DNA from: Candidatus Binatia bacterium
GTDB lineage: Bacteria; Desulfobacterota; Binatia; UBA9968; CAXXLF01
DNA length: 64,000 nucleotides
Reading direction: 5' to 3'
Assembly (NCBI GenBank): GCA_963664015.2
Contig: CAXXLF010000002.1
Coordinates: forward strand, 1,536,001-1,600,000
This document shows positions 1,417-38,190 of the stretch, in pieces; within the stretch, counting starts at the first letter, position 1; each line of letters starts with the position of its first letter. Below the pieces are notes generated by a model. It was not told the origin of the DNA, ran no database searches, and worked only from the letters and a program-made list of their open reading frames with translations. The translations under genes were made by a program, and so were the position numbers.

Positions 1417-1616
1417 GATGGGACTATTAACTACGGGACTACGGGGAAAAGAGGAACAGTAGGCAGTAAGGAGAAAGCTATCAGCCAAAGAAGAGAAAAA
1501 GCCAGGGAGCATTAGGCAGCAAATCAAGGACTACGGACTGCCTGACCACAAACTCACAAAGCAAAGGGCAGAGCGCATAGCGATAAGGACACCGGACCAA
1601 GACTACTGACTAACCT
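1417..1616. repeat. Intergenic heptamer-mosaic repeat block
   Basis: Modules GATGGGACTA/GACTACGG, CAGTAGGCAG, GCTATCAGCCA, GCAAAGGGCAGAGCGCATAGCG, GACTACTGAC. Confidence 0.7.
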
Positions 1617-1709
1617 AAATTTCGAACAGCCTGAAAAGAAGGCAGGTTTAGGCTCCAGAATAACCATTTTCATAACAAAAACACGAGGCTAAGAAGGCAG
1701 ATCGGTGCG

Positions 1710-1738
1710 TTGACGGCAATAGGGCAAAATGTTAGCGT
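1710..1738 (+). promoter_or_regulatory. Sigma70-like promoter
   Basis: TTGACG-17 nt-TAGCGT with extended TG, upstream of GGAGG RBS and ATG 1765. Confidence 0.4.
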
Positions 1739-1764
1739 GGCCCTTCTTTTGGGAGGTGTCCGCG

Positions 1765-2814
1765 ATGGCAATTATCGATGCTGACGCTCACGTCATTGAG
1801 ACTGACCGCACCTGGGAACATTTCGACGAAGCCGACCTAAAATACAAACCCTTCAGAGTAACAGAGCCCAACGATCCCACCAAAGAATACTGGGTCATAG
1901 ACGGCAAGATCCGCGACCGGCGCGGGAATACCGGAAAAGATACCTCTCGCGCGTCACAGGAGATGCTGGACATCCCGGCTCGACTTCGCGATATGGACAA
2001 ATACGGCACGGATATTCAAGTGCTGTACCCGTCACTCTGGACGAGTCTGACTTTCAGCAGCCCCCAAATGGAGCGGGCCATTTGCAAAAGCTACAACCGC
2101 TGGATGGCCGATGTCTGGCGCGAGGGCCAGGGCCGATTACGCTGGATTGCGGTGTTGCCCGCTATGAGTATCGACCATGCGATCGACGAAATGGGCTTTG
2201 TCAAGGAAAACGGTGCCTGTGGAGTCACTATGCGCGGGTTTGAAGGAGAGTACCATGCAACGGACCCGCATTTCTTCCCCTTGTACCAGGAGGCGAGTAA
2301 TTTAAATCTTCCCATATGCTTCCATGCTGGTATCGGCAACGCGGAAATAGACGAATTCTTGACTCGGGCGGCTGGCGGGGGCAACTTCCTCCGATTCAAG
2401 TGGCCGGTGTTGGGTGCCTTTCATTCACTGATTATCGGTCGCGTCCCGAGCAAATTTCCCGACCTTCGCTGGGGCTTCATCGAGGTTAGCAGTCAGTGGC
2501 TGCCCTACGTGATCGGTGACATCGCTCGCCGCCTCGCCTGGCGCCAGAGCCGGTACGACGACGACCGGCCGACGGGCGATCTGCTGAAAGAAAACCGGTT
2601 CTACGTCGCTTGCCAAACCAACGACGACATCCCCTATGTATTGCAGTACGCAGGTGGTGAGGACAACTTGGTCATCGGCACCGACTATGGACACGCGGAT
2701 ACCACTAGCGAGCTGACGGCCATCAGGAGGTTCAAGGAAAACTCCAGTTTGCCCCCGGTAATCGTTCAGAAGATCGTCGACGTCAATGCTCGGGCTCTCT
2801 ACGGTCTCGATTAG
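1765..2814 (+). CDS. Amidohydrolase family protein (Amidohydro_2)
   Basis: IDADAH metal motif, YNRW, PICFH, GTDYGH; GGAGG RBS before ATG 1765. Confidence 0.9.
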   Translation: MAIIDADAHVIETDRTWEHFDEADLKYKPFRVTEPNDPTKEYWVIDGKIRDRRGNTGKDTSRASQEMLDIPARLRDMDKYGTDIQVLYPSLWTSLTFSSPQMERAICKSYNRWMADVWREGQGRLRWIAVLPAMSIDHAIDEMGFVKENGACGVTMRGFEGEYHATDPHFFPLYQEASNLNLPICFHAGIGNAEIDEFLTRAAGGGNFLRFKWPVLGAFHSLIIGRVPSKFPDLRWGFIEVSSQWLPYVIGDIARRLAWRQSRYDDDRPTGDLLKENRFYVACQTNDDIPYVLQYAGGEDNLVIGTDYGHADTTSELTAIRRFKENSSLPPVIVQKIVDVNARALYGLD

Positions 2815-2974
2815 ACGATGTGTTTCGAAGATAGCTCCTTAACGGGGGAATCGTGGTAATGAACGTTCGATTAGTCTACGGACGGGGTAGGTCAGACATC
2901 AGGAACCGCCGGTCATCGACCACCGGGAATCCCCGTCGCAACGCTTGGCAAGAGCTGAGCGGATAGGAGGAACG

Positions 2975-4191
2975 ATGAAAAGGCAAACAAAGGTAATTTT
3001 CCTGATGGCCGCAATCGCGATACTGGTTGCGGTCTACGGCGGAACAGGGAACCTGGCCCCGCAGACGGCACGATCCCAGACATCTGCACCGGAGTCGTTT
3101 AAGGCCGAATGGACGAAGCTCATCAAGGCCGCATAGACGGAAGGAAAGATGCTCCATGTCCTGGGTGGCTCTGCAAGCAGGCAGTACCGCCCCATTATCA
3201 ATGCGTTCGACCAAAAAGTTTGGGATTAAGTCGATTGTGTCCACTGGCTCTGGAACCGACCAGGTAAACCGGCTTCTGGCGGAGAACGGCGCCGGTATTT
3301 ATGTCGCAGACGTGATCCAGATCGGCGACTCGGGAGCCCTGCGGCTAGTACCAGCCGGGGGACTTGCCCCACTGCGTCCACTTTTGATTCACCCTGATGT
3401 CCTCAACGGAAGAAACTGGTTTGGGGGCCAGCTGTTTTTCGCTGATTCGGCTACTAACCAATAAGTACTAAACCACGGCGCCTATGCTTCTCCGTTCACT
3501 CTCGCTATGCGTTACAACACCAATGTCGTGAGTCAGGCAGATATCGACGCTATAAATTCTGTGTATGACTACCTGGATCCCAAGTGGAAGGGCAAGCTGG
3601 TAGCCCTCACCCCGATCAGCGAGCAGGTGGCGGGTTACTACAGTCACATGGCTCACCCCAGACGTAGGCGAAGAGTGGGTTAGCCAGTGGTTCAACCCGG
3701 CACACGGAATGACCTTTACCGATAACTGCAAGCTCATTGTGGACGGGATGGCGAAGGGGAACTTCGCTTTCGGGGTCTCCATAGGCTCTTGCGGGCGGGA
3801 TCTGGACAGATTGATCCGACAAGGCGTGCCCGCCAAGCGGCTGTACAAACCGTTCAAGAAAGCCCCGGCGCTGTCCGGCGGTGCCGCTGGAAACAACATC
3901 CAATGCGCCAAGAACGCGCCTCACCCCAACGCCGCAAAGCTCTTTATCAATTGGTTCCTGAGCAAAGAAGGTCAGACCCTCAGCCACACGATTTCCAAGG
4001 ATAATCCGGACCCCAACTCTGCGAGAGGACGTTCCGTGTACCGGGAAGGTCGACCCGAACGAATGCCGCAAGCCCGGAGTAAAGCATCTCTACTTGACGG
4101 CCGATCCCCAGTTCGCGTCACACAAAAACGAATACATGGCAAAGGCACGGCGCATCTTTCGCATGCTCCAGAAACGTTGAGCAGGCCCTAG
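2975..4191 (+). pseudogene. Extracellular solute-binding protein (Fe/polyamine ABC-type), disrupted
   Basis: Signal peptide, then TAG at 3134-3136, a frameshift near 3212, TAA at 3462-3464 and further shifts. Retains LDPKWKGK and APHPNAAKLFINWFLSKEGQ seen in the intact paralogs. Confidence 0.85.
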
Positions 4192-4304
4192 CTTCAGCAG
4201 ACGGGCGTATTTTACATGTGCGAGAGCTCGATGCTCCACTGGGATCTCTTCTGTACGGCTTAAAAGCTGAGAGAAGACGGTAGAAACGACCCGGAGGAAC
4301 GCCC

Positions 4305-4627
4305 ATGCTGTTGGCACGGCCGCTTGCATCCATACTGCCCACCGAGTTAAAAACGCCAGGCGCTCCATTGTTCGTGATGGCGGCGATCTTGTTGACGGTC
4401 GGTATGTATCTGACCGTGCCGGTCCTCCTGCTGCCTCCCGTGGCACGATGGCACTCTCATTGCTTGCTCTGGAATTTGCTTCCCCAGCCATCAGCCAGTA
4501 CGAAGAGGCGAGTATCATTAGCCTGCTCATCATGGCCCTCACGGTGGGGTTGGCAGTGTTCGCCCGCGCGTTTGGTTTGCGTATGTCTGTTCAGCATCAG
4601 CAACTGGTCAACACGGTGAACCGATAG
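4305..4627 (+). pseudogene. ABC permease remnant with large internal deletion
   Basis: N-terminal FVMAAILLTVGMYL joined out of frame to SRGTMALSLLALEFASP...FARAFGLR. These match the N- and C-termini of the intact permease 9142..10881. Confidence 0.75.
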
Positions 4628-4840
4628 GCAAAGGGCATGGGGCAAAGTGCGGAGGAAGTAGGCAGCAAGTCACGGACTACAGACTACGGACAACAGGGCC
4701 GCAAGACCAGGAGGCGAATCACTAAGGAAATAGTACAAAGCGTTAAGATGGGACAACTGACTATTGACGACAGGACTACGGACAGGCAGACACAGAGATA
4801 GGAATAGAGCAAGGAAAATCCGGCACCGTAACAGGTGCAT
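4628..4840. repeat. Intergenic heptamer-mosaic repeat block
   Basis: GCAAAGGGCATGGGGCAAAG, GACTACAGACTACGGAC, AAAGCGTTAAGATGGGACAACTGACTA, GACTACGGACAGGCAGACACAGAGATAGG. Confidence 0.7.
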
Positions 4841-4873
4841 TCGAATGAAGAGAAATGCCGGAGGAACCATTCC

Positions 4874-6086
4874 ATGCTCCCGCAAAAGGACAATGAGATT
4901 CTCACCCAAACCGGCCCCGACACCCCCATGGGAGGCCTGTTCCGGCGTTACTGGCTCCCTGCCCGACTGTCCGCCGGTTCAGGTCAGGCTTCTGGGTGAG
5001 GAGCTCGTGGCCTTTCGTGATAGCCAGGGAAGAGTGGGTCTCTTAGACGAGCACTGCTCCCACCGAGGGACTTCCCTTTATTACGGCCGGAACGAGGAGT
5101 GCGGGCTGCGTTGCATCTATCATGGCTGGAAGTATGATATGGACGGGAATGTCCTGGAGACGCCAGCAGCGCCGTCAGGCAGCGATTTCAAAACGAAGAT
5201 CCACCACCGGACCTATCCATGCAGGGAGGAAGCCGGAATTGTTTTTGCTTACATGGGCCCCCTTGAGAAAAAGCCGTTGTTTCCATCGTACGAGTGGGTC
5301 GGCTTATCTGAGGATCAGGTCTTTGTAACCAAGGTTTTTCTGAAGTGTAACTATCTTCAAGGCCTCGAAGGAGACTGTGACTCATCCCATCTATCCTATT
5401 TGCACAAATCGTTTAAGGCAGGAACCAGGGAGTTTGAGAATGAAGCCTACGCAAACGACGGTGCGCCTAAATTAGAAGCCGTGGGGACGGACTTCGGAGT
5501 ACGGATGGTCTCGCTCAGAAAGTCGGGACCTAGCACCAATCTTTTTCGCGTTACCAATTTTGTCATGCCGTGCCAAGGATTCATACCAGGCGGAAGAGAG
5601 GGGCTGACCACCCACTATTACGTCCCCATAGACGATGCCCACGTCTGGAAATAGTACGTGATTATCAACCGGGACCGGCCTCTACGGAAGGAAGAGAGGA
5701 CCCTGGGGAATGACTTGGGTCCCGATTACAAGAAGCTCCGTAATCTCCACAACCATTACCTCCAGGACAGGGGAGCTCAGAGAACTCAAACCTTTATCGG
5801 CGCGGGGCCTTCTTTTTTCGTACACGATTCGTGCGCTACCGAGTCCATGGGCCCCATCTTTGATCGAAGCAGAGAGCATCTAGCGGTAAGCGACACGATG
5901 GTGATAACGGTGCGCAAATCCTTGATCACGGCCGTGACGTCTTTTCAGGACGGAAAAGAACTGCCACACATTGTCACGGATCCTACAAGAAACACCTTTC
6001 AGCACCTGGTCACAACCTCGGAGACATTACCGTCAACGGTTGCAGCTGATCAACAGCTTGATCTGCGCATGAACGAACAGCGATAA
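4874..6086 (+). pseudogene. Rieske non-heme iron oxygenase (phthalate dioxygenase/LigXa-like), disrupted
   Basis: ATG 4874 MLPQKDNEILTQTGPDTPMGGLFRRYWLP, then a frameshifting deletion near 4960. CSHRG/CIYHG Rieske motif and D-x2-H-x4-H are present; in-frame TAG at 5652-5654. Confidence 0.85.
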
Positions 6087-6159
6087 GGGAACAGTTTCAA
6101 TCTGCTTTTGCCTGTTTAGAGCCTCTTCAACCCGACCCGCGCGCAAAGTGTGGGAGACA

Positions 6160-6330
6160 GGAGCTTGCGAGCCAGTGCTGAGTAACGAGCGCTGAGTACT
6201 GAAGGCCAGAGATCGTAGCCTGAGGCTGATCAGCCTTCGGCTGAAGCCGTCAGCTTTCAGCGAAGATGAAAGCAAAGCGGCAACAGCCAAACCAGCAGGG
6301 ATCAGGCACCGGGACAAGGCAACAGGTTGT
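6160..6330. repeat. Intergenic heptamer-mosaic repeat block
   Basis: GTGCTGAGTAACGAGCGCTGAGTACTGA, GCCGTCAGCTTTCAGC, terminal CAGGCACCGGGACAAGGCAACAGG. Confidence 0.65.
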
Positions 6331-6363
6331 CGGATTTTTTTCGTTTCTCGTAAGGATTCTCTT

Positions 6364-7248
6364 ATGGCTCAATCAGAACTCAAGCTCTCGCTTCCTGATC
6401 ACGGTGCAGCGTTTGCACCGATACACTATGCTGCTGATAAAGGTTTATTTCGGCAGCGGGGAGTCGATATAGAAGTGGTCATGTTGGAAGGCGGACCCGC
6501 ATGTGCGTCCGCCCTGTTATCCACGAAGGTCGATCTAACTTGCGCCCTGGGCCCGTTGATCAGAAGAGCTATGCGAGACGGGGCAACAGGATTCAAGGGC
6601 ATCTCAGGTTTAAGAAAAACAATCGGTTTCAGTATTGTAGGCAAACCAGGATTGACTTCAATCAACGATTTGCTGGGCAAGAGTATCGAATCGCCAAGTT
6701 CGGATTGGAGTGGTGGAACTTATTTCAAGCATGTGCTCCGAGAGCTCGGGGTGGAGGGTGGGATTCAAGCCAAGTTCAGCTATGTTACGCAGGAACAGAG
6801 GCTGGAAGGTCTGATCAAAGGAGAATTTGATGCCGGCCTACTATCAGCAGAAAAGGCCCTCATTGCTCAAGAGCACGGTTTCAAGATCCTCGTTGCTTTT
6901 GATAAGGTCATTCCGGAGGTTTGCAGTTCAGTCATTGCAACCACTCCGGACCTTATTCGGGAGCGAAGAGAAGACCTCAAAAAGATAATCCGGGCGGTTA
7001 TAAAAGGAATCCAGGAAATGCAAACCTCGAGAGAGGGGTGCGTTAAATATCTTGTTGAGAAGTTTTCGATGTCACCTGGAGCCGCGACATCTCTTTATAA
7101 TCTCAATTGCCCCAACTGGTCGACTGACCTTAGCGTTGCCTCTATCCAGAAGGAAATTGACATCAGTCACAGCGTGCACGGCATGCAATGGTTGCCGGCC
7201 GTGGATATCGTTGACTCATCTTTATTGCAAGAAGTTCTCAATTCATAG
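6364..7248 (+). CDS. NMT1/THI5-like (SsuA/TauA) periplasmic-binding-fold protein, no evident signal peptide
   Basis: APIHYAADKGLFRQRGVDIEV pattern; DLLGKSI; GEFDAG. Confidence 0.75.
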   Translation: MAQSELKLSLPDHGAAFAPIHYAADKGLFRQRGVDIEVVMLEGGPACASALLSTKVDLTCALGPLIRRAMRDGATGFKGISGLRKTIGFSIVGKPGLTSINDLLGKSIESPSSDWSGGTYFKHVLRELGVEGGIQAKFSYVTQEQRLEGLIKGEFDAGLLSAEKALIAQEHGFKILVAFDKVIPEVCSSVIATTPDLIRERREDLKKIIRAVIKGIQEMQTSREGCVKYLVEKFSMSPGAATSLYNLNCPNWSTDLSVASIQKEIDISHSVHGMQWLPAVDIVDSSLLQEVLNS

Positions 7249-7500
7249 GCTACAAGTCTACAGGACGGCAGAGAAGAAAAGTGCAGAGCGTTAAGAGAAC
7301 TTAGCCGCAGATTTACGCAGACTAAACCCCGGCCGTTCACCACAGAGACGCAGAGGCCGCAGAGAATTCACTTTTTGTTTGTCGGGAGATGACGACAAAC
7401 AAGGGATACTTAATCGCGGACGATCAATCATTCGCGGCAACGGGCATAGAGCAAAGCGTTAAGAAAGTACGATTAACGACATTACTGCAAGACCACCAGT
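7249..7500. repeat. Repeat mosaic at convergent junction, with hairpin
   Basis: CAGAGCGTTAAG, CCGCAGATTTACGCAGA, CACCACAGAGACGCAGAGGCCGCAGAG; hairpin TTGTTTGTCG-8 nt-CGACAAACAA at about 7375-7402. Confidence 0.65.
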
Positions 7501-7558
7501 CGCAGGTTGGTTATTGCCTTTAGTAAAGAAGCCCTATTCTTTCCTCGGGTTGCTCTTG

Positions 7559-8758
7559 TTACCGCTGCAAGGCCTTCCACTGTTTGGTTAGCTCTCTCGT
7601 GAACTTCAGAGCCTTCGTTCGGACAGCCATAAAGTGCGGGTCGCTCTGCGGGTAGATGTAGTCGACTCCTTTATGAATCTTGGCCTCCGGCCGGAGCATG
7701 TCGTTGGGAATATCGAGCCGGAAGGACTGGCGCTGGCCGTACCCGTTGTGGATCGCCAGCTGCCCCTCGCGGGACAGCCACCAGTTGATGAACACCTTCC
7801 GGGCGTTTGGGTTCGGCGGGTTGGATATGAGCATGACCATGCTCGCGCTTCCGCCACCGGCGAGGATGTTCCCCTCCTTCATGGTGAACCGGTAGTCCAT
7901 GATCTCGATCGGCGCCCCTGCTTCTTTCATTTCGTACATATCATCGGTGGCACCGACGAAGATAGCGATCGCCTTTTTTCCGGTTATGACCCAGTCCTTT
8001 GCAGTTCTATTGTCATCGATCATGGCAATCCCGGTTTCCAGGAAGAGCCTCTTGATCCACTTGGGCCCAAGCTTCGGGTGCCCGTAGTACTCGGAGACGC
8101 TCCCAGCCTGGCCCTCTCTACCGAGATAGCCACTCACGATCTTACCGTGGTATTTGGGATCCAGCAGGTCCCACAGGGAGGTGATTTCCTTAGGGTTGAC
8201 CAGGTTCGTGTTCACCAGAAGCCCTGCGCCGCGAGGGCTTGCCGAGTGGAGGAATACATAACGGCGCGCATGGTCACCGTAGTGATGCCTGCCGTCCCAC
8301 CACAGGGATTGGTCCCTGACCTCGGGCAAGATTAAATCCCCGGCCATAGGGTCCAGCGCCCCCTGACTGAGAAGAACTTCACCGTTGGTTACCCCACCCA
8401 TGAAAGTATCAACACTGTTCACGCCGGCGCCCTTCTCGGCAAGAATGCGGTTGGCCTCCTGCCCGCCACGGGTGGCGCTGAGGGTGGCCTTAATGCCGAA
8501 CTTTTTCCCAAAAATAGGGAATATCTTCCGGAAGGAGCGGCCGATCTCCCCACCGCCAGCTACGGACAACTTTCCCTCTTTCTTCGCTCCGGCAACGGCC
8601 TCTTCCCACCTGCTCTTCCAGTCCCCTGTTCCCGTTGCCTGAGCTCGCACCGTTACCGCCGGCAGCATCAATAGGGCAACAAGACCCACCATCACCCAGA
8701 AGCGTCGTCCCACTTCCAGCCTGGCGGTTCTTTCTCTGGTCTCTCTGTGAATTACCAT
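7559..8758 (-). CDS. Extracellular solute-binding protein (ABC, Fe/polyamine-type)
   Basis: Signal peptide ending VRA-Q; AKKEGKL, DLLDPKYHGK, PNPNARKVFINWWLSREGQ; GGAGGGAG RBS before ATG 8758. Confidence 0.85.
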   Translation of the reverse strand: MVIHRETRERTARLEVGRRFWVMVGLVALLMLPAVTVRAQATGTGDWKSRWEEAVAGAKKEGKLSVAGGGEIGRSFRKIFPIFGKKFGIKATLSATRGGQEANRILAEKGAGVNSVDTFMGGVTNGEVLLSQGALDPMAGDLILPEVRDQSLWWDGRHHYGDHARRYVFLHSASPRGAGLLVNTNLVNPKEITSLWDLLDPKYHGKIVSGYLGREGQAGSVSEYYGHPKLGPKWIKRLFLETGIAMIDDNRTAKDWVITGKKAIAIFVGATDDMYEMKEAGAPIEIMDYRFTMKEGNILAGGGSASMVMLISNPPNPNARKVFINWWLSREGQLAIHNGYGQRQSFRLDIPNDMLRPEAKIHKGVDYIYPQSDPHFMAVRTKALKFTRELTKQWKALQR

Positions 8759-8947
8759 GTTCGCTCCCTCCATTCCTCATGGATATTTTCTTGTTCGGAT
8801 AGCAGTCTCTCTTCCTGCCTCCATGCTGAAACTCAGATACGAAAGCGCGGCATATCAGGTTTGCCACAGCAACCGCCTCGTCTCCAAAATAATAATAGAA
8901 TACGATCGTTGCACGCAGCGTCCTTCCCTGTCCGGCTATTCCTGGCA

Positions 8948-9031
8948 AGGATATACCGCGGAGCGCCCATGTCAAGTCCCTGGGACGCCCGTGCTACACC
9001 GGGTTGACCAGAGCTACAGGGGTGCTAGAAT
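8948..9031. promoter_or_regulatory. Back-to-back divergent sigma70-like promoters (SBP / permease)
   Basis: Minus strand TTGACA(8975-8970)-16-TATCCT; plus strand TTGACC(9004-9009)-16-TAGAAT(9026-9031). Confidence 0.45.
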
Positions 9032-9141
9032 CGTGGCGTTTGATGAAGGGATCGATTGAGAGTTGAGATTGGCCCCCTTAATAGGGTCCGGATGTAGGGA
9101 CAAAGCGCAGCCGAACACATACCGGGCCGAGTCCATTACCC

Positions 9142-10881
9142 ATGCTAACCCGAACTCAGGAACAACATCTTCCGGTTGTCCACGTGCCGGCAATCGGCAC
9201 GTTTGTCATGGCGGTGATCCTCCTCACCTTGGGCTTCTATTTTTTGTATCCTATCTTTCTGATTGGATTAAACAGCTTCAACACGACCAATAGTCTTCTG
9301 GCAACTCCTGCCTATGGGCTGGATAACTGGCGCAGCGCATTCAGCCAGCCCGACCTATTTAAAGCGGTCGGCAACACCTTTCTCATCTTCGGCATTCAAC
9401 TGGCTATCGGTTTTCCCATAGCTGTCGTTATTGCATGGTCGCTTGCGCGAGTGCGTATGCCCTTCACCTATGGTCTGGAGTTCCTCTTCTGGGTGGCGTA
9501 CCTCGTTCCAACTATATCCATTACTATCGGTTGGATGCTCCTCATGGATCCAGTCCTTGGGTTCCTCAACCGGACCGTCACCTGGCTTCCTTTCTTTGAC
9601 AGCGGACCTTTCAACATCTTCAGCGTCCCGGGCATCATCTGGGTCCACATTGTGGGGAGCACTATTCCCTCAGGCGTGATCCTGCTCACCCCCGCCTTTA
9701 GAAACATGGACGCGGCATTAGAAGAAGCGGCTCGCGTCTCCGGCTCATCGAGCCTTCGGACGATGCTACGAGTTACGCTACCGGTTATGATTCCGCCCAT
9801 GGTGGCAGTTTTTACGTTGCGGCTGGTGCGAATGTTCGAGTCCTTTGAGACGGAGCAGCTACTCGGTGTCCCATTCGGCTTTTTCGTCTATGCAACCAAA
9901 ATCTTCGAGCTGGCTCGTGACACTCCACCCCAATTCGGCTCGGCGACGGCACTCGGCAGCATTACGCTGCTCCTGGTGGCACTCATCATCCCCATCCAGC
10001 GATGGCTCCTTACCAGAAGGCGCTATACCACCGTTACTGGGAGTTTTAAGCCCGGGCGAATCGACCTGGGCCCCTGGAGGTGGGTGATCTTCGGCTCAAT
10101 TATCATCGTATTGGTGCTGCTCATTGTCGCGCCGGTTCTCAGCCTGCTCCTCGGAAGCTTCATGCGTCGAGCGGGGATTTTCATCCTGAAGCCAACCTAC
10201 ACCTTGCACCACTGGCAATTCGTCCTGACCGACCCGGTATTCTTGAACTCACTCAAGAATACGTTGTGGCTCGCCACAACGGCGGCCGTATTCAGCCCAT
10301 TGTTGTTTTCCATGCTTGCTTACATCATCGTACGGACAAAGTGGATTGGCCGCGAGGTGCTTGACAGCCTGATCTGGATCTCAGGGGTTATCCCAGGCAT
10401 GCTCGCTGGGCTCGGCCTGCTGTGGATGTTCGTGGGAACGGCGTTCCTCCGCCCCCTGTACGGAACGCTGCTCCCCTTGATCATCGTTGTTATCATTCAG
10501 GGCAACACGACTGGTGTGCAGATCTCGAAGGCCTTCTTTTACCAGATGGGTGCAGACCTGGAAGAACAGGCCAGGGTATCCGGTGCAGGATGGTGGGCTA
10601 CCTATTTCAAAATCTGGCTCCGCCTGATGATGCCGACCCTGGTATTGTTGGCAGTAATGAACTTCATGTTTGCTGCGACGACCACAAGCAGTATCATCCT
10701 GCTGGCACCACGGGGCACTATGACGCTGTCGATCCTGGCCCTGGAGTTTGCAGCCCCGGGAGTCGGCTTACGTGAATCGGCAGGAATTGTGAGCCTGATT
10801 TCCCTGTTCATGGCGGTAGGCATGGCGCTGGTAGCAAGAGCCTTCGGACTGCGATTTGGCATCCGTGAGAGGAAATACTGA
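9142..10881 (+). CDS. ABC transporter permease (FbpB-like, duplicated TM domain)
   Basis: Two EAA-type motifs (LEEAARVSGSS, LEEQARVSGAG); about 12 TM segments. Confidence 0.9.
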   Translation: MLTRTQEQHLPVVHVPAIGTFVMAVILLTLGFYFLYPIFLIGLNSFNTTNSLLATPAYGLDNWRSAFSQPDLFKAVGNTFLIFGIQLAIGFPIAVVIAWSLARVRMPFTYGLEFLFWVAYLVPTISITIGWMLLMDPVLGFLNRTVTWLPFFDSGPFNIFSVPGIIWVHIVGSTIPSGVILLTPAFRNMDAALEEAARVSGSSSLRTMLRVTLPVMIPPMVAVFTLRLVRMFESFETEQLLGVPFGFFVYATKIFELARDTPPQFGSATALGSITLLLVALIIPIQRWLLTRRRYTTVTGSFKPGRIDLGPWRWVIFGSIIIVLVLLIVAPVLSLLLGSFMRRAGIFILKPTYTLHHWQFVLTDPVFLNSLKNTLWLATTAAVFSPLLFSMLAYIIVRTKWIGREVLDSLIWISGVIPGMLAGLGLLWMFVGTAFLRPLYGTLLPLIIVVIIQGNTTGVQISKAFFYQMGADLEEQARVSGAGWWATYFKIWLRLMMPTLVLLAVMNFMFAATTTSSIILLAPRGTMTLSILALEFAAPGVGLRESAGIVSLISLFMAVGMALVARAFGLRFGIRERKY

Positions 10882-10894
10882 GATCCCCACGGAT

Positions 10895-11095
10895 AAAGCA
10901 AAGCGCAAAGAGCAGAGCGCAAAGCGTTAAGATGGGACAACGGACGACTGACTACGGGACGAGGGGGGAAAGAGGGACAGTCGGCAGTGAACAGATGGCA
11001 GGATGATGGCTATCAGTAGTCAGTTTTCAGCGATCAGTAAAGAAATAGTACGAAGCTAGGGAGGAGCACAGGGACAAGGTAAATCGCCGCCGGAG
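10895..11095. repeat. Intergenic heptamer-mosaic repeat block (most complete copy)
   Basis: GCAAAGCGCAAAGAGCAGAGCGCAAAGCGTTAAG-ATGGGACAACGGACGACTGACTACGG-CAGTCGGCAG-GCTATCAGTAGTCAG-GCACAGGGACAAGG. Confidence 0.75.
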
Positions 11096-11258
11096 CTCTT
11101 TTTTTATATTTTAAAAGAAAGGTATTTGTTTTATGGCTAGCCCGGACTCTGCATGAATGGGGCGTTGGGACAGCCAACCTGTGGTTGGCCGGGGCACGTC
11201 GCGTCTGCGGCGTGCCCATTTTTATGTTAGCATAGAATTCGAATGGTTTGGTCACACG

Positions 11259-11798
11259 TCATTTTGGAAACGTAAGCGCGATACCAAGAGATATTGGTTT
11301 ATCGCCGATGCTCAAAACCGTTCTTGCGTCTGACAACTCCCAGGACGAGAGCTTTTCTTTCGAATATCCTTTTGTTGTGGCGGTATCCGACGAGCCAGCC
11401 TTGGTCAATTTGATGACGTAATTTTCATTGCTTCCGTCGCTCAGAGTTACCGAGAGAGCCATTTGCTTGCCTTCTTCTGTCGCCACTGTTTGCAGTGAGG
11501 CAATTTGAGTCCAGGCTGTTGTCCTGTTCACGGTATCGAAGTACATCCACAAGTGTGACCCAATAAATGCGAAAAGCAGCAACCAAGCATACTGACCAAC
11601 CCTCTGCTGTTTTTTCATATACCGAAATTTATGTAGGTCGAAAACTTTGCGGTACGTTTTTCTATCGGCTTCCAATTTCTTAGCAGGACTTTCCTCCACC
11701 GAACTCACCGGTTCTTCAATTTTAGATCCGAGACTGTTCAGTATCATCCCCACGATTATCAACACCAATGGGATACCGATCACTAGAAATGGATTCAT
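11259..11798 (-). CDS. Hypothetical membrane protein (2 TM)
   Basis: 179-aa ORF with AGGAG RBS and two hydrophobic segments; lower GC than neighbours. Confidence 0.6.
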   Translation of the reverse strand: MNPFLVIGIPLVLIIVGMILNSLGSKIEEPVSSVEESPAKKLEADRKTYRKVFDLHKFRYMKKQQRVGQYAWLLLFAFIGSHLWMYFDTVNRTTAWTQIASLQTVATEEGKQMALSVTLSDGSNENYVIKLTKAGSSDTATTKGYSKEKLSSWELSDARTVLSIGDKPISLGIALTFPK

Positions 11799-14021: not shown

Positions 14022-14654
14022 ATGCTTAAAACGTCTGAAGATTTCGATAAAATCGAAGCCGTTACCCTCGGCCATTACGATCAAAATGCCGCTTCCTTTT
14101 GGGAGGGGACGAAAGACCACGATGTGGCTCAAAACTATAAGGAATTTTTAGCGCTGTTCCCGGAGGGAAAAATCCTGGACATCTTGGACTTCGGGTGCGG
14201 CCCCGGGAGAGATGTCCAATATTTCCAAAACCTAGGCCACCGACCGGTGGGCTTGGATGGCAGTGCCATCTTCTGCAATATGGCTCGCCGATACACTCAC
14301 TGCGAGATCCTTAATCAAAAGTTTCTTAGCCTGCGGCTACCGCACCAGGCCTTCGACGGCGTCTTCGCTAACGCCTCTCTTTTTCACGTTCCCAGACAGG
14401 AACTGTCGCGGATTCTTGGTGAATTACACGAGGCCTTACGGCCCGGAGGAATTTTATTTTCATCCAATCCCCGAGGGGATGGCGAGGGTTGGTCCGGGCA
14501 ACGCTATGGCCATTATATGGAATTGGATGCAAGCAAGGCTTACCTGGAGAAGGCAGACTTTGAAGTGATAAAACACTACTATCGTCCCTCCGGTAAGCCA
14601 AGATCTGAGCAACCGTGGTTGGCCATTGTGAGCCAACGTCTCGAAATAAAATAG
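14022..14654 (+). CDS. Class I SAM-dependent methyltransferase
   Basis: ILDFGCGPGRD; FDGVFANASLFHVP; LRPGG. Confidence 0.85.
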   Translation: MLKTSEDFDKIEAVTLGHYDQNAASFWEGTKDHDVAQNYKEFLALFPEGKILDILDFGCGPGRDVQYFQNLGHRPVGLDGSAIFCNMARRYTHCEILNQKFLSLRLPHQAFDGVFANASLFHVPRQELSRILGELHEALRPGGILFSSNPRGDGEGWSGQRYGHYMELDASKAYLEKADFEVIKHYYRPSGKPRSEQPWLAIVSQRLEIK

Positions 14655-14842
14655 CAGAGCATTAAGATTGGACAACCGACCACGGCCGACAGGGCTACGA
14701 GGCCAAAGAATGACAGTCAGCAGCAGGCAGAGGGCAGCAAGTAGAAGAGAGCTATCAGCCATCAGCCAGATAGGAAAGACAGGGAGCAGTATGCAATGGA
14801 CAACAGGATAAAGCACCGGGACGAGGCAACACGCCGCCGGTA
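14655..14842. repeat. Intergenic heptamer-mosaic repeat block
   Basis: CAGAGCATTAAG-ATTGGACAACCGACCACGG-CAGCAGGCAGAGGGCAG-GCTATCAGCCATCAGCCA-GCACCGGGACGAGGCAACACGCCGCCGG; same module order as 10895..11095. Confidence 0.75.
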
Positions 14843-14941: not shown

Positions 14942-15002
14942 ACCTGCCGATCAGAGAGGGCAACAGTTTACAGCGTGCAGAAGGCAATGGGCAGGAATTC
15001 CG

Positions 15003-15120
15003 TGACGATGGACAACCGACTACTGACTTCTAGGCCAAAGAAAGAGAGTAGGCAGCAAGAAAGCTATCAGCCAAATTAGAATGACGATTACCAAACGCAG
15101 GACACAGGACAAAACAGGAA
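15003..15120. repeat. Heptamer-mosaic block inside predicted 5' leader
   Basis: GATGGACAACCGACTACTGAC, AGTAGGCAGC, GCTATCAGCCA; lies between the promoter and ATG 15135. Confidence 0.65.
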
Positions 15121-15134
15121 TCAGGAGGTAGAGC

Positions 15135-19047: not shown

Positions 19048-19051
19048 GCCC

Positions 19052-19165
19052 GCGACTAGACGACCCGTTACTACTGAGCAAAGCGCATAGGCCACGGCGC
19101 CGAATGACAAGACCAGATAGCAACCGGTTCAGGCACCGGGACAAGGCGACAGGCCACCGGTGCCT
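19052..19165. repeat. Heptamer-mosaic block inside predicted 5' leader
   Basis: GCAAAGCGCATAGG; AGGCACCGGGACAAGGCGACAGGCCACCGGTGCC. Confidence 0.55.
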
Positions 19166-25259: not shown

Positions 25260-25350
25260 AGTGGACAGCCACTAGGGACCACAGCCTACAGGACTACTGA
25301 CAACCGTGGGAAGAGGGACTGAACATAAAAGGTTACGTGTGAAGCGAAGA
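25260..25350. repeat. Short heptamer-mosaic block
   Basis: GGACCACAGCCTACAGGACTACTGACAAC. Confidence 0.5.
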
Positions 25351-27717: not shown

Positions 27718-27874
27718 AACGTTCGAGCATGGCGCAAAGCGATAAGAGGGGGGGCAACAGGGAAGCTATCAGATCGTTACGACTGGTTGTCAGTTCTGAC
27801 TTCGATCCTCAGGGGATCAATGGACTTAAGGTCGCGGTGCAGGGGGTGTAGTTGTAGCGCAGGGTCGACAGTCT

Positions 27875-28467: not shown

Positions 28468-28682
28468 AGACAGCTGGCAGGGAGCGGCAATCCGGACTAC
28501 AGGACAACTGACAGAAGTAAAACAGCAGGCAGTAGCTAGGGAGAGACTCCGTGCCGGATACTGAGGACTGATCACTGAATACTGACGACCGAATAGTTAC
28601 GAGCCCGGAGCTGCCATCTGCCCAGTGCCCACTCCTCACGGTGCTCTGCTCTATGCGTTTTGCTTTCTGGTCTTGTGGTCCC
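28468..28682. repeat. Heptamer-mosaic block with reverse-complement modules
   Basis: GGACTACAGGACAACTGAC, CAGCAGGCAGTAG, ACTGAGGACTGATCACTGAATACTGA, TGCTCTGCTCTATGCG. Confidence 0.65.
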
Positions 28683-28684
28683 GC

Positions 28685-29469
28685 CTATCGGACGGGGACG
28701 AGTATGATTTCTATGCGTCTATTTTGGCTTCGTGTTTCCTCTGAATTGTTTGGGGCGATGGGTCGGTAATAACTGACCCCACTAGCGGTCATTTTTTCCG
28801 GCTGGATATTCCCTTTTTCCTGCAACAAACGCACCACAGCTGCTGATCTGGCAGTGGATAGCTCCCAGTTGGCCAGGAACCTTTCCGTCAATGAATACCG
28901 GATATCAAGATTATCCGTATGTCCTTCCACCACAATAGTCCTACTGGTATCCTCTTCAAAAGATTGCGCCAAGGTCAAAAGGACTTCCTGCCCCTGTCCT
29001 TAATCTTCGTGCTTCCCGAGTCGAATAGAATCTTATCCACAAACGTTACCCTTAGCTTGCCTTCTATCTCTTCGATTTTGACGTCCTTTTCGGCAATCTA
29101 GTCTTTTAGACTGCGCCCTATTTCTCTACGGGTTCGATCCAATTCGGATATCTTCATTTCTTTTTGCTGAACAACGGGTTGGGTTTGCGCCAAGGCAAGT
29201 TTCAACTCACCTATGGCATCCTCTTGTTGCCGGATAGCAGATTGCGCCTGGCTCAGGTTGCGCTTCAAACCTTCTATGGTGCCCGAGAGGCGTGCGTTTT
29301 CACTTTGGAGTTCATTGTGGCGTGTCTGGAGGTCCGATAGGGAATCGTTCTTTTCTTTCAACTGTGAGTTGGAATTCGTTTCCAGGTCCGTATACGTCCC
29401 TTTCGTTACGCACGATGAAAGGAAAAGACAAATGAGACACGAGGTATAAAACAACGATTTATGGAACAT
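28685..29469 (-). pseudogene. OmpA/MotB-family lipoprotein with in-frame TAG
   Basis: Lipobox-like LSSC, coiled coil, LKD*IAEKDV (TAG 29098-29100), ILFDSG, VEGHTDN, NWELSTARS, NRRIEI. Confidence 0.8.
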
Positions 29470-29664: not shown

Positions 29665-30115
29665 CAATGCACAAGGGGACAGAGCGCCGTAGGCAGTAGG
29701 CCGCCAGTCAATAACAACGGATTACTAACGATAGGACTACGGACAGACAGAGATAGGGACAGAACTAGAAAAGATAAAGCCAACAGGATGGGGGCGACAG
29801 TAGAAGAGAGCCAGCAGAGGTCAACCTTTAGCTAAACAGCGTTGAGTGTTAAGTGGCGCCGTAAGAAGCGAGAGAGCGAGCCAACAACACTGCTTTCGGT
29901 CGGTTTGATTTTGTTGTGCGCCGTTTGTTATAGGATGGAGGCGGCTCGGGAAGGCTAAGCGTAGAGGCGAGAACGTAGTGAGGCAGCAGGCGGATGGTAG
30001 CAGGATTAGTGTTAAGTGTTGAGGGAAGAGAAAGCTGTCAGTCAACGGTCCGGAGATGAAGGCTGTGAGCTGAAAGCCGATAGCTAGTTGACTGATGACA
30101 GATTACCGGTCACCC
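29665..30115. repeat. Intergenic heptamer-mosaic repeat block
   Basis: GTAGGCAGTAGG; GACTACGGACAGACAGAGATAGGG (homologous to 4774-4802); GCTGAAAGCCGATAGC. Confidence 0.6.
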
Positions 30116-31121: not shown

Positions 31122-31228
31122 AGGGGCTTATACCCCGCTAGTCAGCGCTGATTACTGGGTATCGCGCAACGCGCATAGCGCGAAGCGTAGGAGAGAAGGT
31201 CAAAGGGAATAATAGGGAGGAGCGGTTT

Positions 31229-34718: not shown

Positions 34719-34925
34719 GCGAAAAGAGCAGAGCGCGCTCAGGGCTGAGGAAAGATAGCTCTCAGCGTTCAGCTAGAGAAGACAGCCAGACAGCTTGCAG
34801 TAAGCAGGATACAGGAAACACTTAGATCTAAAAACTGATAGTTAGTCGTTCAGAGACGAGGACGACTGACCACAGGACTACAGACTGCCGATCACCGGCC
34901 TTCGGTGATGGGTAGCCAGGCAGCA
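34719..34925. repeat. Intergenic heptamer-mosaic repeat block
   Basis: GAGCAGAGCGC, GCTCTCAGCGTTCAGC, GACGACTGACCACAGGACTACAGACTGC. Confidence 0.6.
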
Positions 34926-35971: not shown

Positions 35972-36084
35972 AAGACAGCAGACAACCTTTCAGCTGTCAG
36001 AATTTAGCAAAGAAGTGTTGAGTGTTAAGTAAACAGTGATCAGGTCAAACTTCTTTTACGGCAGATAGATGAAGACGGGGGATC

Positions 36085-36240
36085 AAATTCTAAATCCCAA
36101 GCACCAAACATCAAACAAATCCGAATTTCGAAGCTCTAAACAATACCGAACCCCTAAACTACTCAATCCGATAGTTTTGGAGATTGGATATTTTGTCATT
36201 TGAATTTGTTTCGTATTTGGGATTTCGAATCTCGAGTTCT
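36085..36240. repeat. AT-rich imperfect inverted repeat built from AAATCCC/AAATTC-type heptamers
   Basis: AAATTCTAAATCCCAAGCACCAAACATCAAACAAATCCGAAT ... ATTTGAATTTGTTTCGTATTTGGGATTTCGAAT; sits inside mosaic 35972..36385. Confidence 0.65.
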
Positions 36241-36385
36241 GAAACCACTGTTACCCTCTTTGGCTGATAGCTAGTCCTGTCCTGTTGCTCCCAGCCCACT
36301 GCTTGCTATCTTTCTGACCTCTGACATCCGACCTCCGGTTCTGTGCACTATGCAGTAACGGCTAATACCTGATTACTCAATCCAC

Positions 36386-37687
36386 TCATTCCAGTCCTTC
36401 ACTTTCCGGTGGAGTGGTGCCCTGGGGGTACCGGTAGAGCTCCGGGAGACGGAGCAATAAAAAGCTACCGTAGATTAGAAAGAACGCACATGCCCCGGTT
36501 ATGGCCCAGGGGGCGCTTACAAGTGAGGCGAGGGTGCCGAGTTGTAAGTGACCTAGAGGCCCAATCCCCCGGTGGACCATCATGTTCATTGACATGATCC
36601 GCCCGCGCAACCGATCGGTGATCGAGAGCTGAAGCATCGTGTTCCGAACGGTCCCTCCCATAATGTCCAACGCACCTGCAAGGGCAAGCCAAAGCAGGGA
36701 AACCGGCATCCATTTAGAAAAAGAAAAGAACATGAGCACCACGGGCATGGCAAAGGAAGAGATGGTGAACAGGCGCCCCTTCTTTCTCACATCACCCATG
36801 GCGATGGCCAACCCTGAACCGATCAGCGCGCCTATCCCCGGTGCGGCATAGAGCAGGCCGAGTCCCGTCGGACCAACGTTGAGAATGTCGCGGGCGAAAA
36901 CGGGCAACAGGGCTCGGTAGGTCACAAAGAACGTGTGGACAGCCTCTATACTGAGGAGGCCCCAGAGGAAACGGTTGTCCAGTACGGTCCGGAAGCCTTC
37001 GACGATGGACCGAGTCATCGATGTCTTATGAGTCGGGACCTCCATCGCCGCAATTCTCATCAAGAACAGGGCCACCAGGACCATTCCATGGAGCAGGGCA
37101 TAAGCAAAGAACGTCCACGTGATTCCCAACAGGGATATGCCGAGACCGGCAATCATAGGGCCCACCAGGGCGGTACTGCGTCGAACCGCCGAGGTAAGGG
37201 CAACCGCCCTCATGAGTTCCTCACGGGGAACCAAGCTGGGAACGAGGGATTGGCGTGCGGGACCATCGAAACCGGTAATGGTCGCGTTAAGAAAACCGAG
37301 CGCGTAGAGATGCCAGACCTGGATCAGGTCCAAGCCTGTAAGGATACCAGGAATCAAAGCCAGAACTGTGCTGACGATCTGGGCGGTGAGCAGTATCTTT
37401 CGCCGGTCCATGCGATCAGCGAGCGCACCCCCATACATGGATGTAATGAGGAAGGGAATCGACGAAAAGATACCCATCACCCCAAGCATAAATGGCGAGT
37501 CCGTCAGCTCGAAGATCAGCCACATGGTCGCTACTTGATGAACCCATGAGGCGCTGGCAGCGACGGCCCAGCTTGTCCAGAGGAGCCTGAAATTGCGATG
37601 TCGTAACGGACCCAGTGTCACGGTGCCTGTCTTTTCACTTTCAAACCTAATTCTATTAGAGAAAGGCCCCGGGGGATCCCGGGGCAT
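36386..37687 (-). CDS. MFS transporter (H+ antiporter-1/EntS-like)
   Basis: LRHRNFRLLW, GALADRMDRRK, PARQSLVP, RLRGRIMS; start codon uncertain. Confidence 0.88.
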   Translation of the reverse strand: MPRDPPGPFSNRIRFESEKTGTVTLGPLRHRNFRLLWTSWAVAASASWVHQVATMWLIFELTDSPFMLGVMGIFSSIPFLITSMYGGALADRMDRRKILLTAQIVSTVLALIPGILTGLDLIQVWHLYALGFLNATITGFDGPARQSLVPSLVPREELMRAVALTSAVRRSTALVGPMIAGLGISLLGITWTFFAYALLHGMVLVALFLMRIAAMEVPTHKTSMTRSIVEGFRTVLDNRFLWGLLSIEAVHTFFVTYRALLPVFARDILNVGPTGLGLLYAAPGIGALIGSGLAIAMGDVRKKGRLFTISSFAMPVVLMFFSFSKWMPVSLLWLALAGALDIMGGTVRNTMLQLSITDRLRGRIMSMNMMVHRGIGPLGHLQLGTLASLVSAPWAITGACAFFLIYGSFLLLRLPELYRYPQGTTPPESEGLE

Positions 37688-37705
37688 CCTCAACGTACTA
37701 CAAAA

Positions 37706-38190
37706 AGGAGCAAAGAGCATAGGGGCAAAGAACCAGAGGGCGGAGATCAGAGGTCAGAGATCGGACTAGCGCAAAATGCATAACGCTAAGGGCAAAGCGC
37801 ATGGAGCAAAGCGTTATAAGTTTACGGACTACTGACTACGGGACTACAAAGACGCATTTAGTACTGAGCAACGAGTGCTGAGTAGTGAGTTACCGGACTA
37901 AAGTAAGACAGTAGGCAGCAATTAGCTAAGAGACTAGCGACGACAGGACTACTGACCACAGACAAAAGACAGACAGAAGACAAGATCCGGACGCTTTGCG
38001 CTCTGCCCTATGCGCTTTACTCTTCTCGCGTCGGCGAATATCTGCGGTTAAAGAATCCGGATCCGAATACTGAGAACTGTTTACTGAAAACTGGTAACCA
38101 AACAATAAGTTCAATCCGGAGCTGAACGCTGATAGCTTTATTGCTGCCTACTGTCTTACTGTTTTACGCCATGCGCTATGCAGCGCTTAG
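37706..38190. repeat. Largest heptamer-mosaic block, with nested inverted repeats
   Basis: At least six heptamer families. Perfect 21-bp IR AGTAAGACAGTAGGCAGCAAT (37902-37922) / ATTGCTGCCTACTGTCTTACT (38140-38160). Confidence 0.8.

Follow-up and report, generated by a model that had tools for sequence, protein, structure and literature searches.

A lineage-specific family of intergenic composite repeats built from heptamer arrays in conserved order in a Binatia genome

In a 64,000-nucleotide (nt) stretch of the uncultured marine Candidatus Binatia bacterium (assembly GCA_963664015.2, contig CAXXLF010000002.1; hereafter the window), many gaps between genes are filled with short tandem arrays of different 7-nt units, which raises the question of whether these mosaics are copies of one element or products of independent slippage, and of how they arise, spread and act. 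The window corresponds to C2:1,536,001-1,600,000 of an assembly of 3.51 Mb in two contigs (C1 and C2; GC 53.6%), and its first 38 kb carry catabolic and transport genes, including Amidohydro_2 paralogues, Rieske/LigXa pieces, solute-binding proteins, methyltransferases, a molybdopterin oxidoreductase and an MFS transporter. For a protein of the window, the nearest relative with a name comes from a 'Candidatus Binatia' genome (81% amino-acid identity). We find that the mosaics belong to a lineage-specific family of non-coding intergenic composite repeats, in which degenerate heptamer arrays follow one another in conserved order, and that this family is part of a wider repertoire of about ten heptamer types filling many gaps of the genome.

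Inspection of the gap sequences showed the units GACTACN, CAGTAGG, GCTATCA, AGCGCAW, CAGAGGT, GAGTGCT and AAATCCC in or near the gaps for which the original prediction, a reading of the window's letters alone, had named them. An exact-word map found at least two module words in 15 of the 17 gaps that it listed; the gap at 31140 holds only degenerate AGCGCA-like words, and the blocks at 14655 and 15003, counted there as two gaps, lie in a single one. The arrays are short (2-4 units) and degenerate, and Tandem Repeats Finder (TRF), run at a score of at least 30, returned only six period-7 rows in 1417-38190 (at 4675, 10898, 14750, 36313, 37734 and 37823). Several unit types stand side by side within single gaps, as in the short tandemly repeated repetitive (STRR) sequences of cyanobacteria. 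The periodicity itself was examined by scanning the whole genome in 28-nt windows for at least 68% identity at a given lag. At lag 7, 63 intergenic and 10 coding tracts were found (63/73 intergenic), compared with intergenic/coding counts of 1/1 at lag 5, 5/6 at lag 11 and 2/6 at lag 13, so that intergenic period-7 tracts are about 13-60 times commoner than those at control lags. Counts at even lags are raised by unrelated dinucleotide microsatellites of C2:1-148 kb. About ten unit types recur genome-wide (CAGAGGT, GCGAATA, GTTAATA, GAGGATA, GCTGACA, AAAAGTA, NNNTCAG, AGCGCAA, TTCGGAT and AAATCTA). In the window, the chosen module words occupy 8.3% of gap positions and 2.9% of the rest, a descriptive figure for words picked post hoc.

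The arrays are not assembled at random. The shared order runs from an AGCGCAA array ending in GCGTTAAGAT (module A) through a GGACTAC array (module B) and a CAGTAGG-type module, ACAGTAGGCAG, also written (A)CAGTAGGCAG (module C), to a GCTATCAG/TCAG array (module D, in the form GCTATCAG/NNNTCAG). Five window copies could be aligned over about 110 columns, and a profile built from them matched 13 places in the genome at E<1e-3, eight of which were not seeds. Four rounds of iterated nhmmer at the same threshold gave 13, 20, 24 and then 25 copies, at which point the search had converged, with the consensus caaagc..t.a....gGAC.AC.GACTACgGAC.ACaGGACTACg...AGAaAgAcAGtaaGCAGtaggcAG..AGA.aGctatCAG...tcag. 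When applied to the extracted intergenic set (2196 regions, 630,406 nt), the seed profile produced 11 matches; dinucleotide shuffles and 7-nt block shuffles of this set gave none in five of five replicates each, and 21-nt block shuffles gave 1, 1, 0, 1 and 0. Ordered word pairs within 150 nt on one strand were biased in the same direction: A->B 31 vs B->A 4, B->C 12 vs 5, B->D 10 vs 4 and C->D 25 vs 15 for the reverse. The original prediction had named order no better than that of shuffled intergenic DNA as the outcome that would count against it; the shuffled sets are nearly empty and the order bias is as predicted. Together with the collinear profile matches and the same order in the sister genus, these controls establish that the copies are homologous and not independent products of slippage.

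Judged visually from the alignments, the copies are about 70-80% similar. In three of them the GACTAC array lacks exactly one heptamer column block, and two 83%-identical copies are separated by a 7-nt indel. All 25 copies lie outside open reading frames (ORFs) of at least 100 aa, and the elements are regarded as non-coding because 7-nt indels would disrupt any reading frame.

The blocks of the window are as follows.
1405..1600, plus strand: mosaic copy 5' of an Amidohydro_2 gene (1729-2814), nhmmer E 1.9e-18 for 1405-1534; it contains GATGGGAC, GACTAC units, ACAGTAGGCAG and GCTATCAGCC, then TAGGCAG, GGACTAC and AGCGCAT words.
4628..4700, plus strand: short block with GTAGGCAGC and then a GGACTAC/AGACTAC/GGACAAC array (TRF period 7 at 4675-4696).
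4736..4807, plus strand: mosaic copy 5' of the Rieske/LigXa gene, nhmmer E 6.8e-14, with AAAGCGTTAAGATGGGACAAC, GACTAT/GACGAC/GGACTAC and GACAGA units.
6150..6345, plus strand: block of GAGTGCT/GAGTACT, CAGAGAT and TCAGC-type units 3' of a LigXa_C fragment, with the hairpin GCACCGGGACAAGGC...GTTGTCGG and a T run at its 3' end.
7249..7560, plus strand: block in a convergent gap, with AGCGTTA/AGCGCA words and CCGCAGATTTACGCAGAC modules of period ~10.
10893..11077, plus strand: best mosaic copy, directly 3' of an ABC permease stop codon, nhmmer E 2.8e-26 (TRF 10897-10926), with an AGCGCAA array, GCGTTAAGATGGGACAAC, GACGAC/GACTAC, ACAGTCGGCAG and a GCTATCAG/TCAG array, and with a terminator-like hairpin after it (11060-11100).
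14654..14824, plus strand: mosaic copy reaching from a methyltransferase stop codon to a GCACCGGGACGAGGC...CCGGT hairpin, nhmmer E 4.6e-23.
14997..15119, plus strand: mosaic copy 15 nt 5' of an Amidohydro_2 gene (15135-16169), nhmmer E 1.3e-12.
19052..19165, plus strand: partial block with TACTGAG and AGCGCAT words, ending in a GGCACCGG...CCGGTGCC TTTT terminator-like hairpin.
25260..25320, plus strand: short GGACCAC/GGACTAC/TGACAAC array.
27720..27790, plus strand: weak block with AGCGCAAAGCG and GCTATCAG words.
28468..28690, no strand assigned: head-to-head block between two minus-strand genes, nhmmer E 2.5e-5 for 28492-28546, with GGACTAC, CAGCAGGCAGTAG and NNACTGA arrays on the plus strand and then antisense GAGTG, GGCAG and AGCGCA units.
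29665..30100, plus strand: long block, nhmmer E 3.6e-8 for 29714-29832, with GTAGGCAGTAGGC, GGACTAC, GACAGAGATAGGGACAG, CAGAGGT and GTGTTAAGTG, then a second run of GGCAG, GTTAAGTG and TCAG-type units.
31140..31200, plus strand: weakest listed gap, with degenerate AGCGC/GCGCA words and no exact module word.
34719..34900, plus strand: block of AGCGC, TCAGC and GGACTAC units 5' of an Amidohydro_2 gene.
35972..36385, no strand assigned: block with GTGTTGAGTGTTAAG units, a hairpin of AAATCCN-type units (arms 36087-36110 and 36207-36230), and antisense GCTATCAG and CAGAGGT arrays at 36265-36345 (TRF 36313-36335).
37721..38192, no strand assigned: palindromic composite between two minus-strand genes, nhmmer E 1.3e-5 for 37806-37855; its left half has CAGAGGT, AGCGCAA, GGACTAC, GAGTGCT and ACAGTAGGCAG on the plus strand, and its right half has the complements.
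62867..63050, no strand assigned: nested palindrome in a convergent gap, with an AGCGCA array, a CCGCAAATTTACGCAGAT module, a centre, and both complements mirrored.

Two further sequence types accompany these blocks. The period-~10 module CTTAACCGCAGATTTACGCAGAC occurs in both orientations in the window (7290-7330, 38040-38060 and 62925-63025) and in a relative's locus (L033:1441-1490 and 1647-1690); in a genome of the sister genus (G004), this CGCAGA module flanks a mosaic as a direct repeat. In addition, GCACCGGGACAAGGC, which had been taken for a 3' module of the family, turned out to belong to a recurrent terminator-like hairpin (GCACCGG...CCGGTGC plus a T run), of which it makes up the 5' arm and the loop. 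This hairpin family, GCACCGG-GACAAGGC(A/G)ACA...-CCGGTGC plus T run, is common to unrelated genes, with sites at 6303-6345, 11060-11100, 14808-14850 and 19128-19175 in the window and at C2:344946(-) and C2:906648(-) outside it. A rule that the mosaic ends in a terminator holds in four window gaps and was dropped for the family as a whole, where 8/25 copies have such a hairpin downstream in sense and 6/25 in antisense.

The occurrence of the elements in other genomes was then compared, with f1, f2 and f3 denoting families of the order, G000-G004 the five genomes of the same family (G000 being the genome studied here) and G002 and G004 the sister genus. BLAST of the best copy found matches in 4/4 genomes of f1, 8/18 of f2 and 0/18 of f3, mostly to AGCGCA arrays; matches collinear from the AGCGCA into the GGACTAC array were present in G004 (6) and G002 (3). 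The full module order is visible in the relatives' loci L032, L033 and L001; in L001 the mosaic stands 5' of the xdh orthologue, a position that is free of mosaics in the window, and the window's downstream block is absent. The B-to-C junction pattern (GGACTAC to ACAGTNNGCAG) has four sites in G000 and was not found in any of 300 further genomes sampled from the phylum, only ten of which belong to the same class; a reversed control pattern gave two matches. Profile searches of 400-kb samples of G002 and G006 yielded no match at E<1e-2, and period-7 tracts per 400 kb numbered 3 in G002, 2 in G006 and 10 in a G000 sample, counts too small to compare lineages. A metagenome scan for the GCGTTAAGATNGGACNACNGAC junction returned two loci, both without surrounding heptamer arrays and one of them coding-like, which appear to be chance matches. 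Distant BLAST of the best copy against a plasmid collection gave no match (a phage collection was not searched).

At the strain level, genomes about 97-99% identical keep the elements, and no gain or loss of a whole element was seen over window positions 1-20000. One strain variant (run X8) is without 1468-1514: its 1417 copy has lost these 47 nt, which lie between direct TAGGCAG repeats. The 14654..14824 copy is kept free of indels in a strain that differs by about 3%. Copy-number change in 7-nt steps was observed between copies; between strains, only the TAGGCAG-bounded deletion was seen. Short-read contigs tend to stop at the elements.

Within the genome, all 25 copies are intergenic and adjoin 45 distinct proteins, which form only two small paralogue groups (24-53% and 31-88% identity), so that the similarity of the copies does not stem from gene duplication. 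That the mosaic might be a conserved leader of amidohydrolase paralogues was rejected, as only 4/45 flanking proteins belong to that group (24-53% identity). The family is strongly clustered: 18/25 copies lie within C2:1,454,129-1,704,340 (250 kb), and three more within 3 kb at 1.164-1.167 Mb. One pair of copies belongs to a segmental duplication of 447 nt, which also takes in a gene fragment. The second close pair, at C1:721328 and C2:839372, is a 196-nt palindromic composite of 83% identity with unrelated flanks.

With regard to orientation, 20/25 copies are on the plus strand. A replication-strand rule could not be separated from the fact that genes of the same region are mostly plus as well, and period-7 tracts elsewhere occur in both orientations. 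The replication map is itself unclear: dnaA lies at C1:111,756-112,232, where gene-strand bias switches as expected of a terminus, and an origin-type switch is found near C2:1.45 Mb, beside the mosaic-rich region. A transcription-sense rule was rejected for the 25-copy family, which has 7 sense and 6 antisense copies in tandem gaps. Among all period-7 tracts in tandem gaps, the purine-rich strand is sense in 21 and antisense in 7. By gap type, these tracts number 36 tandem, 19 convergent and 9 divergent, where about 36.5, 12.4 and 15.2 are expected (computed by hand from gap sizes).

Such clustering bears on a first rival explanation, in which the arrays are slippage-prone, functionless by-products of a plastic, paralogue-rich region and owe their similarity to common descent by segmental duplication and gene conversion. 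It would account for the regional clustering, the pair in the 447-nt duplication, the split and fragmentary genes of the window (LigXa_C pieces and solute-binding-protein fragments), the family's indifference to orientation, the folds of single copies (not significant, see below) and the turnover of occupied gaps between genera. The preserved module order across genera and the 21 vs 7 sense bias of period-7 tracts in tandem gaps argue against it, as do two features of other loci described below, the covarying arms around four-helix-bundle genes and the array site after gatB. On balance, we regard a purely neutral origin as doubtful.

The gene fragments just mentioned are worth specifying. The Rieske/LigXa gene is split into adjacent ORFs at 4764-5654 and 5658-6086, with part of LigXa_C in each, and 5' of it, window positions 3027-4619 hold short ORFs with a solute-binding-protein tail only. 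Both are likely pseudogenes of a catabolic cluster in decay.

How do the copies multiply? The original prediction proposed spread in trans, and the agent of such spread was not found: searches of the genome revealed neither a reverse transcriptase nor TnpB, the ends of its insertion sequence (IS) are unrelated, and the family shows neither defined termini nor target duplications. The only Y1_Tnp match is sub-threshold (22.4 bits vs a cut-off of 23); other transposase families were not searched. It falls in a 245-aa ORF with a DnaA_C-like helix-turn-helix; this ORF and an adjoining RfaH/UpxY-like NusG paralogue are found at C1:435,530-436,811 on the minus strand, 5' of sugar-nucleotide genes and in surroundings where heptamer arrays abound. 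The only multicopy IS is a 1.45-kb, rve-type element in four copies (99.8-100% identical; C1:1239681-1241130, C1:1247285-1248737, C1:807205-808612 and C2:423711-425159) that encodes a 435-aa integrase-core-like transposase; it was discarded as a partner, its ends showing no resemblance to AGCGCA arrays. Identity with repetitive extragenic palindromes (REPs) or their mosaics, the bacterial interspersed mosaic elements (BIMEs), was likewise rejected, the units being tandem heptamers with no internal palindromes and no Y1 transposase of the REP-associated type (RAYT) scoring above the cut-off.

A second rival would nevertheless see here a non-autonomous element mobilised in trans, similar to a miniature inverted-repeat transposable element, with the AGCGCAA arrays as terminal inverted repeats of its full palindromic form. 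It draws on the dispersal of copies beside 45 different genes, on the 196-nt palindromic composite shared by two contigs at 83% identity in unrelated flanks, on several palindromic gaps bounded by inverted AGCGCA arrays and on the different gaps occupied in related genomes. Palindromic composites do start and end with inverted AGCGCA arrays, and solo copies have ragged ends and variable array length. Set against this, no termini could be defined (the 5' array varies in length, 3' ends are uneven and truncation on either side is common among the copies), the two closest pairs of copies showed no target-site duplication at their borders, reverse transcriptase and TnpB were not found and the sole Y1_Tnp match is below the Pfam cut-off, the only multicopy IS has unrelated ends, 18/25 copies are clustered in 250 kb, and strains about 97-99% identical show no whole-element gain or loss over window positions 1-20000. 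This explanation is therefore considered improbable. Since 18 of the 25 copies lie in 250 kb, local recombination or duplication is favoured over transposition.

The elements had also been suggested to be a structured RNA family. This was not supported for single copies: eight folds gave z values from -2.29 to +2.24 and no common structure, and Rfam had no match at the gathering score over the window and none at E<=0.1 over 1-39000. Inverted pairs of modules behave differently: they give long stems, both in three gaps of the window and on the two sides of the MFS gene. The block at 37721-38192 is a long imperfect palindrome with a perfect 21-nt pair (37902-37922 and 38140-38160); the RNA fold of 37760-38192(-) has -137.8 kcal/mol (z -3.66), and none of 100 shuffles was as stable. 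For the palindrome at 62867-63050 (folded as 62860-63060), the corresponding values are -63.7 kcal/mol and z -2.45, with none of 200 shuffles as stable. Inverted CAGAGGT arrays stand on either side of the MFS gene (36386-37720), the last of those at 36265-36345 pairing with 37733-37765. In a crude genome-wide scan, 16 genes have complementary flanks, eight of which are array-bracketed (seven by heptamers and one by period-10 CGCAGA); these include a MarR-like gene in a nested palindrome, an aminotransferase, CoxG, dtd and a PF05635 gene. The MarR-like locus, C2:1,462,631-1,463,730, has a 145-aa ORF (assigned by eye) inside nested heptamer-array palindromes, whose outermost arms match over 54 nt with an ungapped score of 50. 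The genome also has an RNase III gene.

Bracketing is also found at four-helix-bundle genes. That neither such a gene nor a GxxExxY gene is present holds for the window; the genome as a whole contains three PF05635/TIGR02436 genes, all on contig C1. A six-frame PF05635 search returned only these three sites, one of which was checked as TIGR02436, and TIGR04256 (GxxExxY) had no match in G000. The association of heptamers with four-helix-bundle genes is real in this lineage, through other heptamer types and in the form of inverted arrays bracketing the ORF. All three own genes lie amid heptamer arrays, and ten loci from relatives were added to give a set of 13, which was compared with 150 control genes. 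A stringent period-7 tract lies within 500 nt at 9/13 loci, and an upstream/downstream flanking inverted repeat of at least 25 bits at 12/13, vs 3/150 control genes; at the 13th locus, the minimum free energy and centroid folds both close on such a stem. The bracket consists of an upstream array and its downstream complement, and its unit differs at almost every locus. Because the unit changes from locus to locus while the arms stay complementary, the arms covary. CAGTAGG units, module C of the window, surround a PF05635 gene in one relative. In the window itself there is no PF05635 match, and of a cassette resembling the intervening sequences (IVSs) of 23S rRNA only the complementary flanks are present.

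The accumulation of different repeat types at the same sites, also proposed at the outset, was confirmed in the gap after the gatB stop codon, which has arrays of differing unit types in all five genomes of the family. G000 has GAGGATG-type arms around a PF05635 ORF, which is present at this site in this genome only; G002 and G004 have an empty NNNTCAGC palindrome (fold z -0.59 and -1.88, respectively), and G001 and G003 have TCAGC arrays. A site kept in five genomes despite the change of unit type, and arms that covary around 12-13/13 PF05635 genes with locus-specific units, are the two features referred to above as arguing against neutral by-products.

Could the arrays instead be read by a protein? 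Avd is a pentamer that contacts nucleic acid, and a third rival would make the arrays binding sites on DNA or RNA, with one contact per heptamer, for a PF05635/Avd-like oligomer, a global regulator or a nucleoid protein. Arrays of 3-6 tandem units would suit it, as would the presence of PF05635 ORFs always amid arrays and their distribution among families (f1 4/4, f2 17/18, f3 0/18), which parallels that of the array matches (f1 4/4, f2 8/18, f3 0/18). Heptanucleotide arrays of Geobacter metallireducens are annotated as putative global regulator sites (PMC2700814) and RNA-binding proteins are suggested for the TAACTGA repeats described by MacGregor (PMC4679880). The family distribution is, however, a single, confounded comparison because f3 is one genus with a very different GC (66.6% vs 54%). 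With about ten unrelated units and three PF05635 genes, moreover, one protein could not read all of them, and what is conserved at PF05635 genes is the complementarity of the arms and not the unit sequence, which favours pairing over sequence-specific recognition. We thus consider protein binding an unlikely basis for the arrays.

The family is real, non-random and lineage-specific, and its description is well supported; its function is a matter of inference. As a whole, the reading that we favour, to which we give a probability of about 0.5, is that the elements are STRR-like composites that spread by slippage and local recombination and may form RNA stems when paired. The copies would be descendants of common ancestors, changing by gain or loss of whole heptamers through slippage and by deletion between repeated words, and multiplying mainly by local recombination or duplication with no dedicated transposase. 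They would be co-transcribed with adjacent genes. A single copy would be an unstructured purine-rich tract; two inverted copies of one module would form a long stem that either closes the gap, as a terminator- or stabiliser-like hairpin, or brackets a whole gene. Such a stem could serve as a double-stranded RNA substrate for RNase III, comparable to rRNA-flanking stems and the IVSs of 23S rRNA, and the solo mosaics of the window would then be half-elements.

Several observations weigh against this STRR-like reading. Most arrays are solo, so a pairing function would cover only a minority of copies. The 25-copy family has neither a terminator association (8/25 sense vs 6/25 antisense) nor a sense bias in tandem gaps (7 sense, 6 antisense), and the enrichment of period-7 tracts in convergent gaps and their depletion in divergent ones are only marginal. 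The co-occurrence of PF05635 genes and arrays across relatives amounts to a single phylogenetic contrast. Finally, the 196-nt composite on two contigs resembles a dispersed discrete unit, which local recombination leaves unexplained.

A more far-reaching and speculative extension, which we also consider unlikely, is a pairing code, in which each cassette is an upstream array with its downstream complement, solo mosaics pair in trans and four-helix-bundle proteins bind the arrays. It would apply to every PF05635 gene and to some ordinary genes (MFS transporter, MarR-like, aminotransferase). The stem would delimit a unit excised by RNase III or, at the DNA level, an IVS-like mobile cassette, and solo half-sites together with antisense copies elsewhere could couple the fates of many mRNAs of the catabolic region.

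Some features of the assembly were noted in passing. Outside the window, C2:1-148,150 contains 156 dinucleotide microsatellites of the (CA)n/(GA)n/(TG)n types with at least eight units, and there are none elsewhere in C2 or in C1; a poly-C run (148,097-148,156) stands at the end of this stretch, which looks like eukaryote-type DNA fused onto a bacterial contig in a chimeric assembly. In addition, C1:1-12,742 and C2:152,105-164,845 are 99.99% identical in reverse orientation, probably an assembly overlap that joins both contigs into one chromosome.

Among known repeats, BIMEs (REP mosaics of enterobacteria) and BOX elements (boxA-boxB-boxC of pneumococci) are modular intergenic mosaics with fixed order and variable internal units; they often stand 3' of genes or in convergent gaps, and inversion of their modules produces stems. 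They may be the best analogy for how the present elements work, and differ in being built of 35-nt palindromic REPs or 45-60-nt boxes where the present family has heptamer arrays; the sequences share no similarity. Correia/NEMIS elements of Neisseria are short intergenic inverted repeats that are co-transcribed and cut by RNase III, with altered mRNA stability. They could serve as an analogy for the paired form, and unlike the elements described here they have defined terminal inverted repeats and TA target duplications and no tandem heptamers.

Closer in unit length are the STRRs known from filamentous cyanobacteria, together with the mixed arrays (TAACTGA among other heptamers) reported in Beggiatoaceae, Microcystis and some Bacteroidetes. 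These too are 7-nt tandem arrays, nearly always intergenic, with unit types adjacent to each other, show 7-nt-step indels between strains and strain- or lineage-specific occupancy, and have an unexplained mechanism (PMC4679880). NNACTGA-type units, as in the MacGregor arrays, occur in the window as well (28550-28590). The Binatia elements differ from STRRs in lineage and in unit sequence, and from both groups in that short arrays (2-4 units) in conserved order make up a 100-160-nt homologous composite at 25 places, with no preference for the position just 5' of start codons. In Geobacter metallireducens, the genome report describes 4x GGACCGG in 49 places and 5x MTYCTGA in 15 sites (PMC2700814), similarly dispersed, multicopy elements of 4-5 tandem heptamers, some of which are drawn as strand-switching palindromic pairs; these have a single unit type each and are partly intragenic, and an ordered multi-type mosaic is not described in the text on them (PMC2700814).

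A link between heptamers and RNA processing is known from the IVS of Coxiella 23S rRNA, where tandem GACAGAT heptamers lie 5' of the S23p ORF, the RNase III 5' site is at the first repeat and heptamer copy number varies between strains (PMC4990558). The stem of complementary flanks enclosing a four-helix-bundle ORF in the IVSs of Leptospira and Coxiella (PMC4990558) has its counterpart at 12-13/13 PF05635 loci. Unlike IVSs, the PF05635 genes of this lineage lie between protein genes and not in rRNA, and the window elements enclose none. In Haemophilus influenzae, heptamer repeats in a 5' untranslated region are reported to be linked to RNase III processing (PMC12721329). Our literature search found no description of heptamer mosaics in Binatia or of PF05635 genes bracketed by inverted heptamer arrays.

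Tandem heptamers are among the commonest unexplained repeats of bacteria, occurring in cyanobacteria, Beggiatoaceae, Bacteroidetes and Geobacter, and the present study adds a new lineage, the Binatia. Since the order is fixed across 25 copies and across genera, the arrays are inherited and reshuffled as modules and are not born solely by slippage. Inverted, covarying arrays are statistically linked to four-helix-bundle (S23p/Avd-like) genes, which ties intergenic repeats to the stem architecture of rRNA IVSs. If pairing proves wrong, the elements remain useful as markers of genome plasticity and, in practice, still cause assemblies to break. Should the arrays indeed act by pairing, a role in RNase III-type processing would follow, which could be tested in cultivable cyanobacteria or Bacteroidetes with the same gene family. 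To our knowledge, STRR-type repeats have remained unexplained since 1990; should the pairing code hold, they would gain a function.

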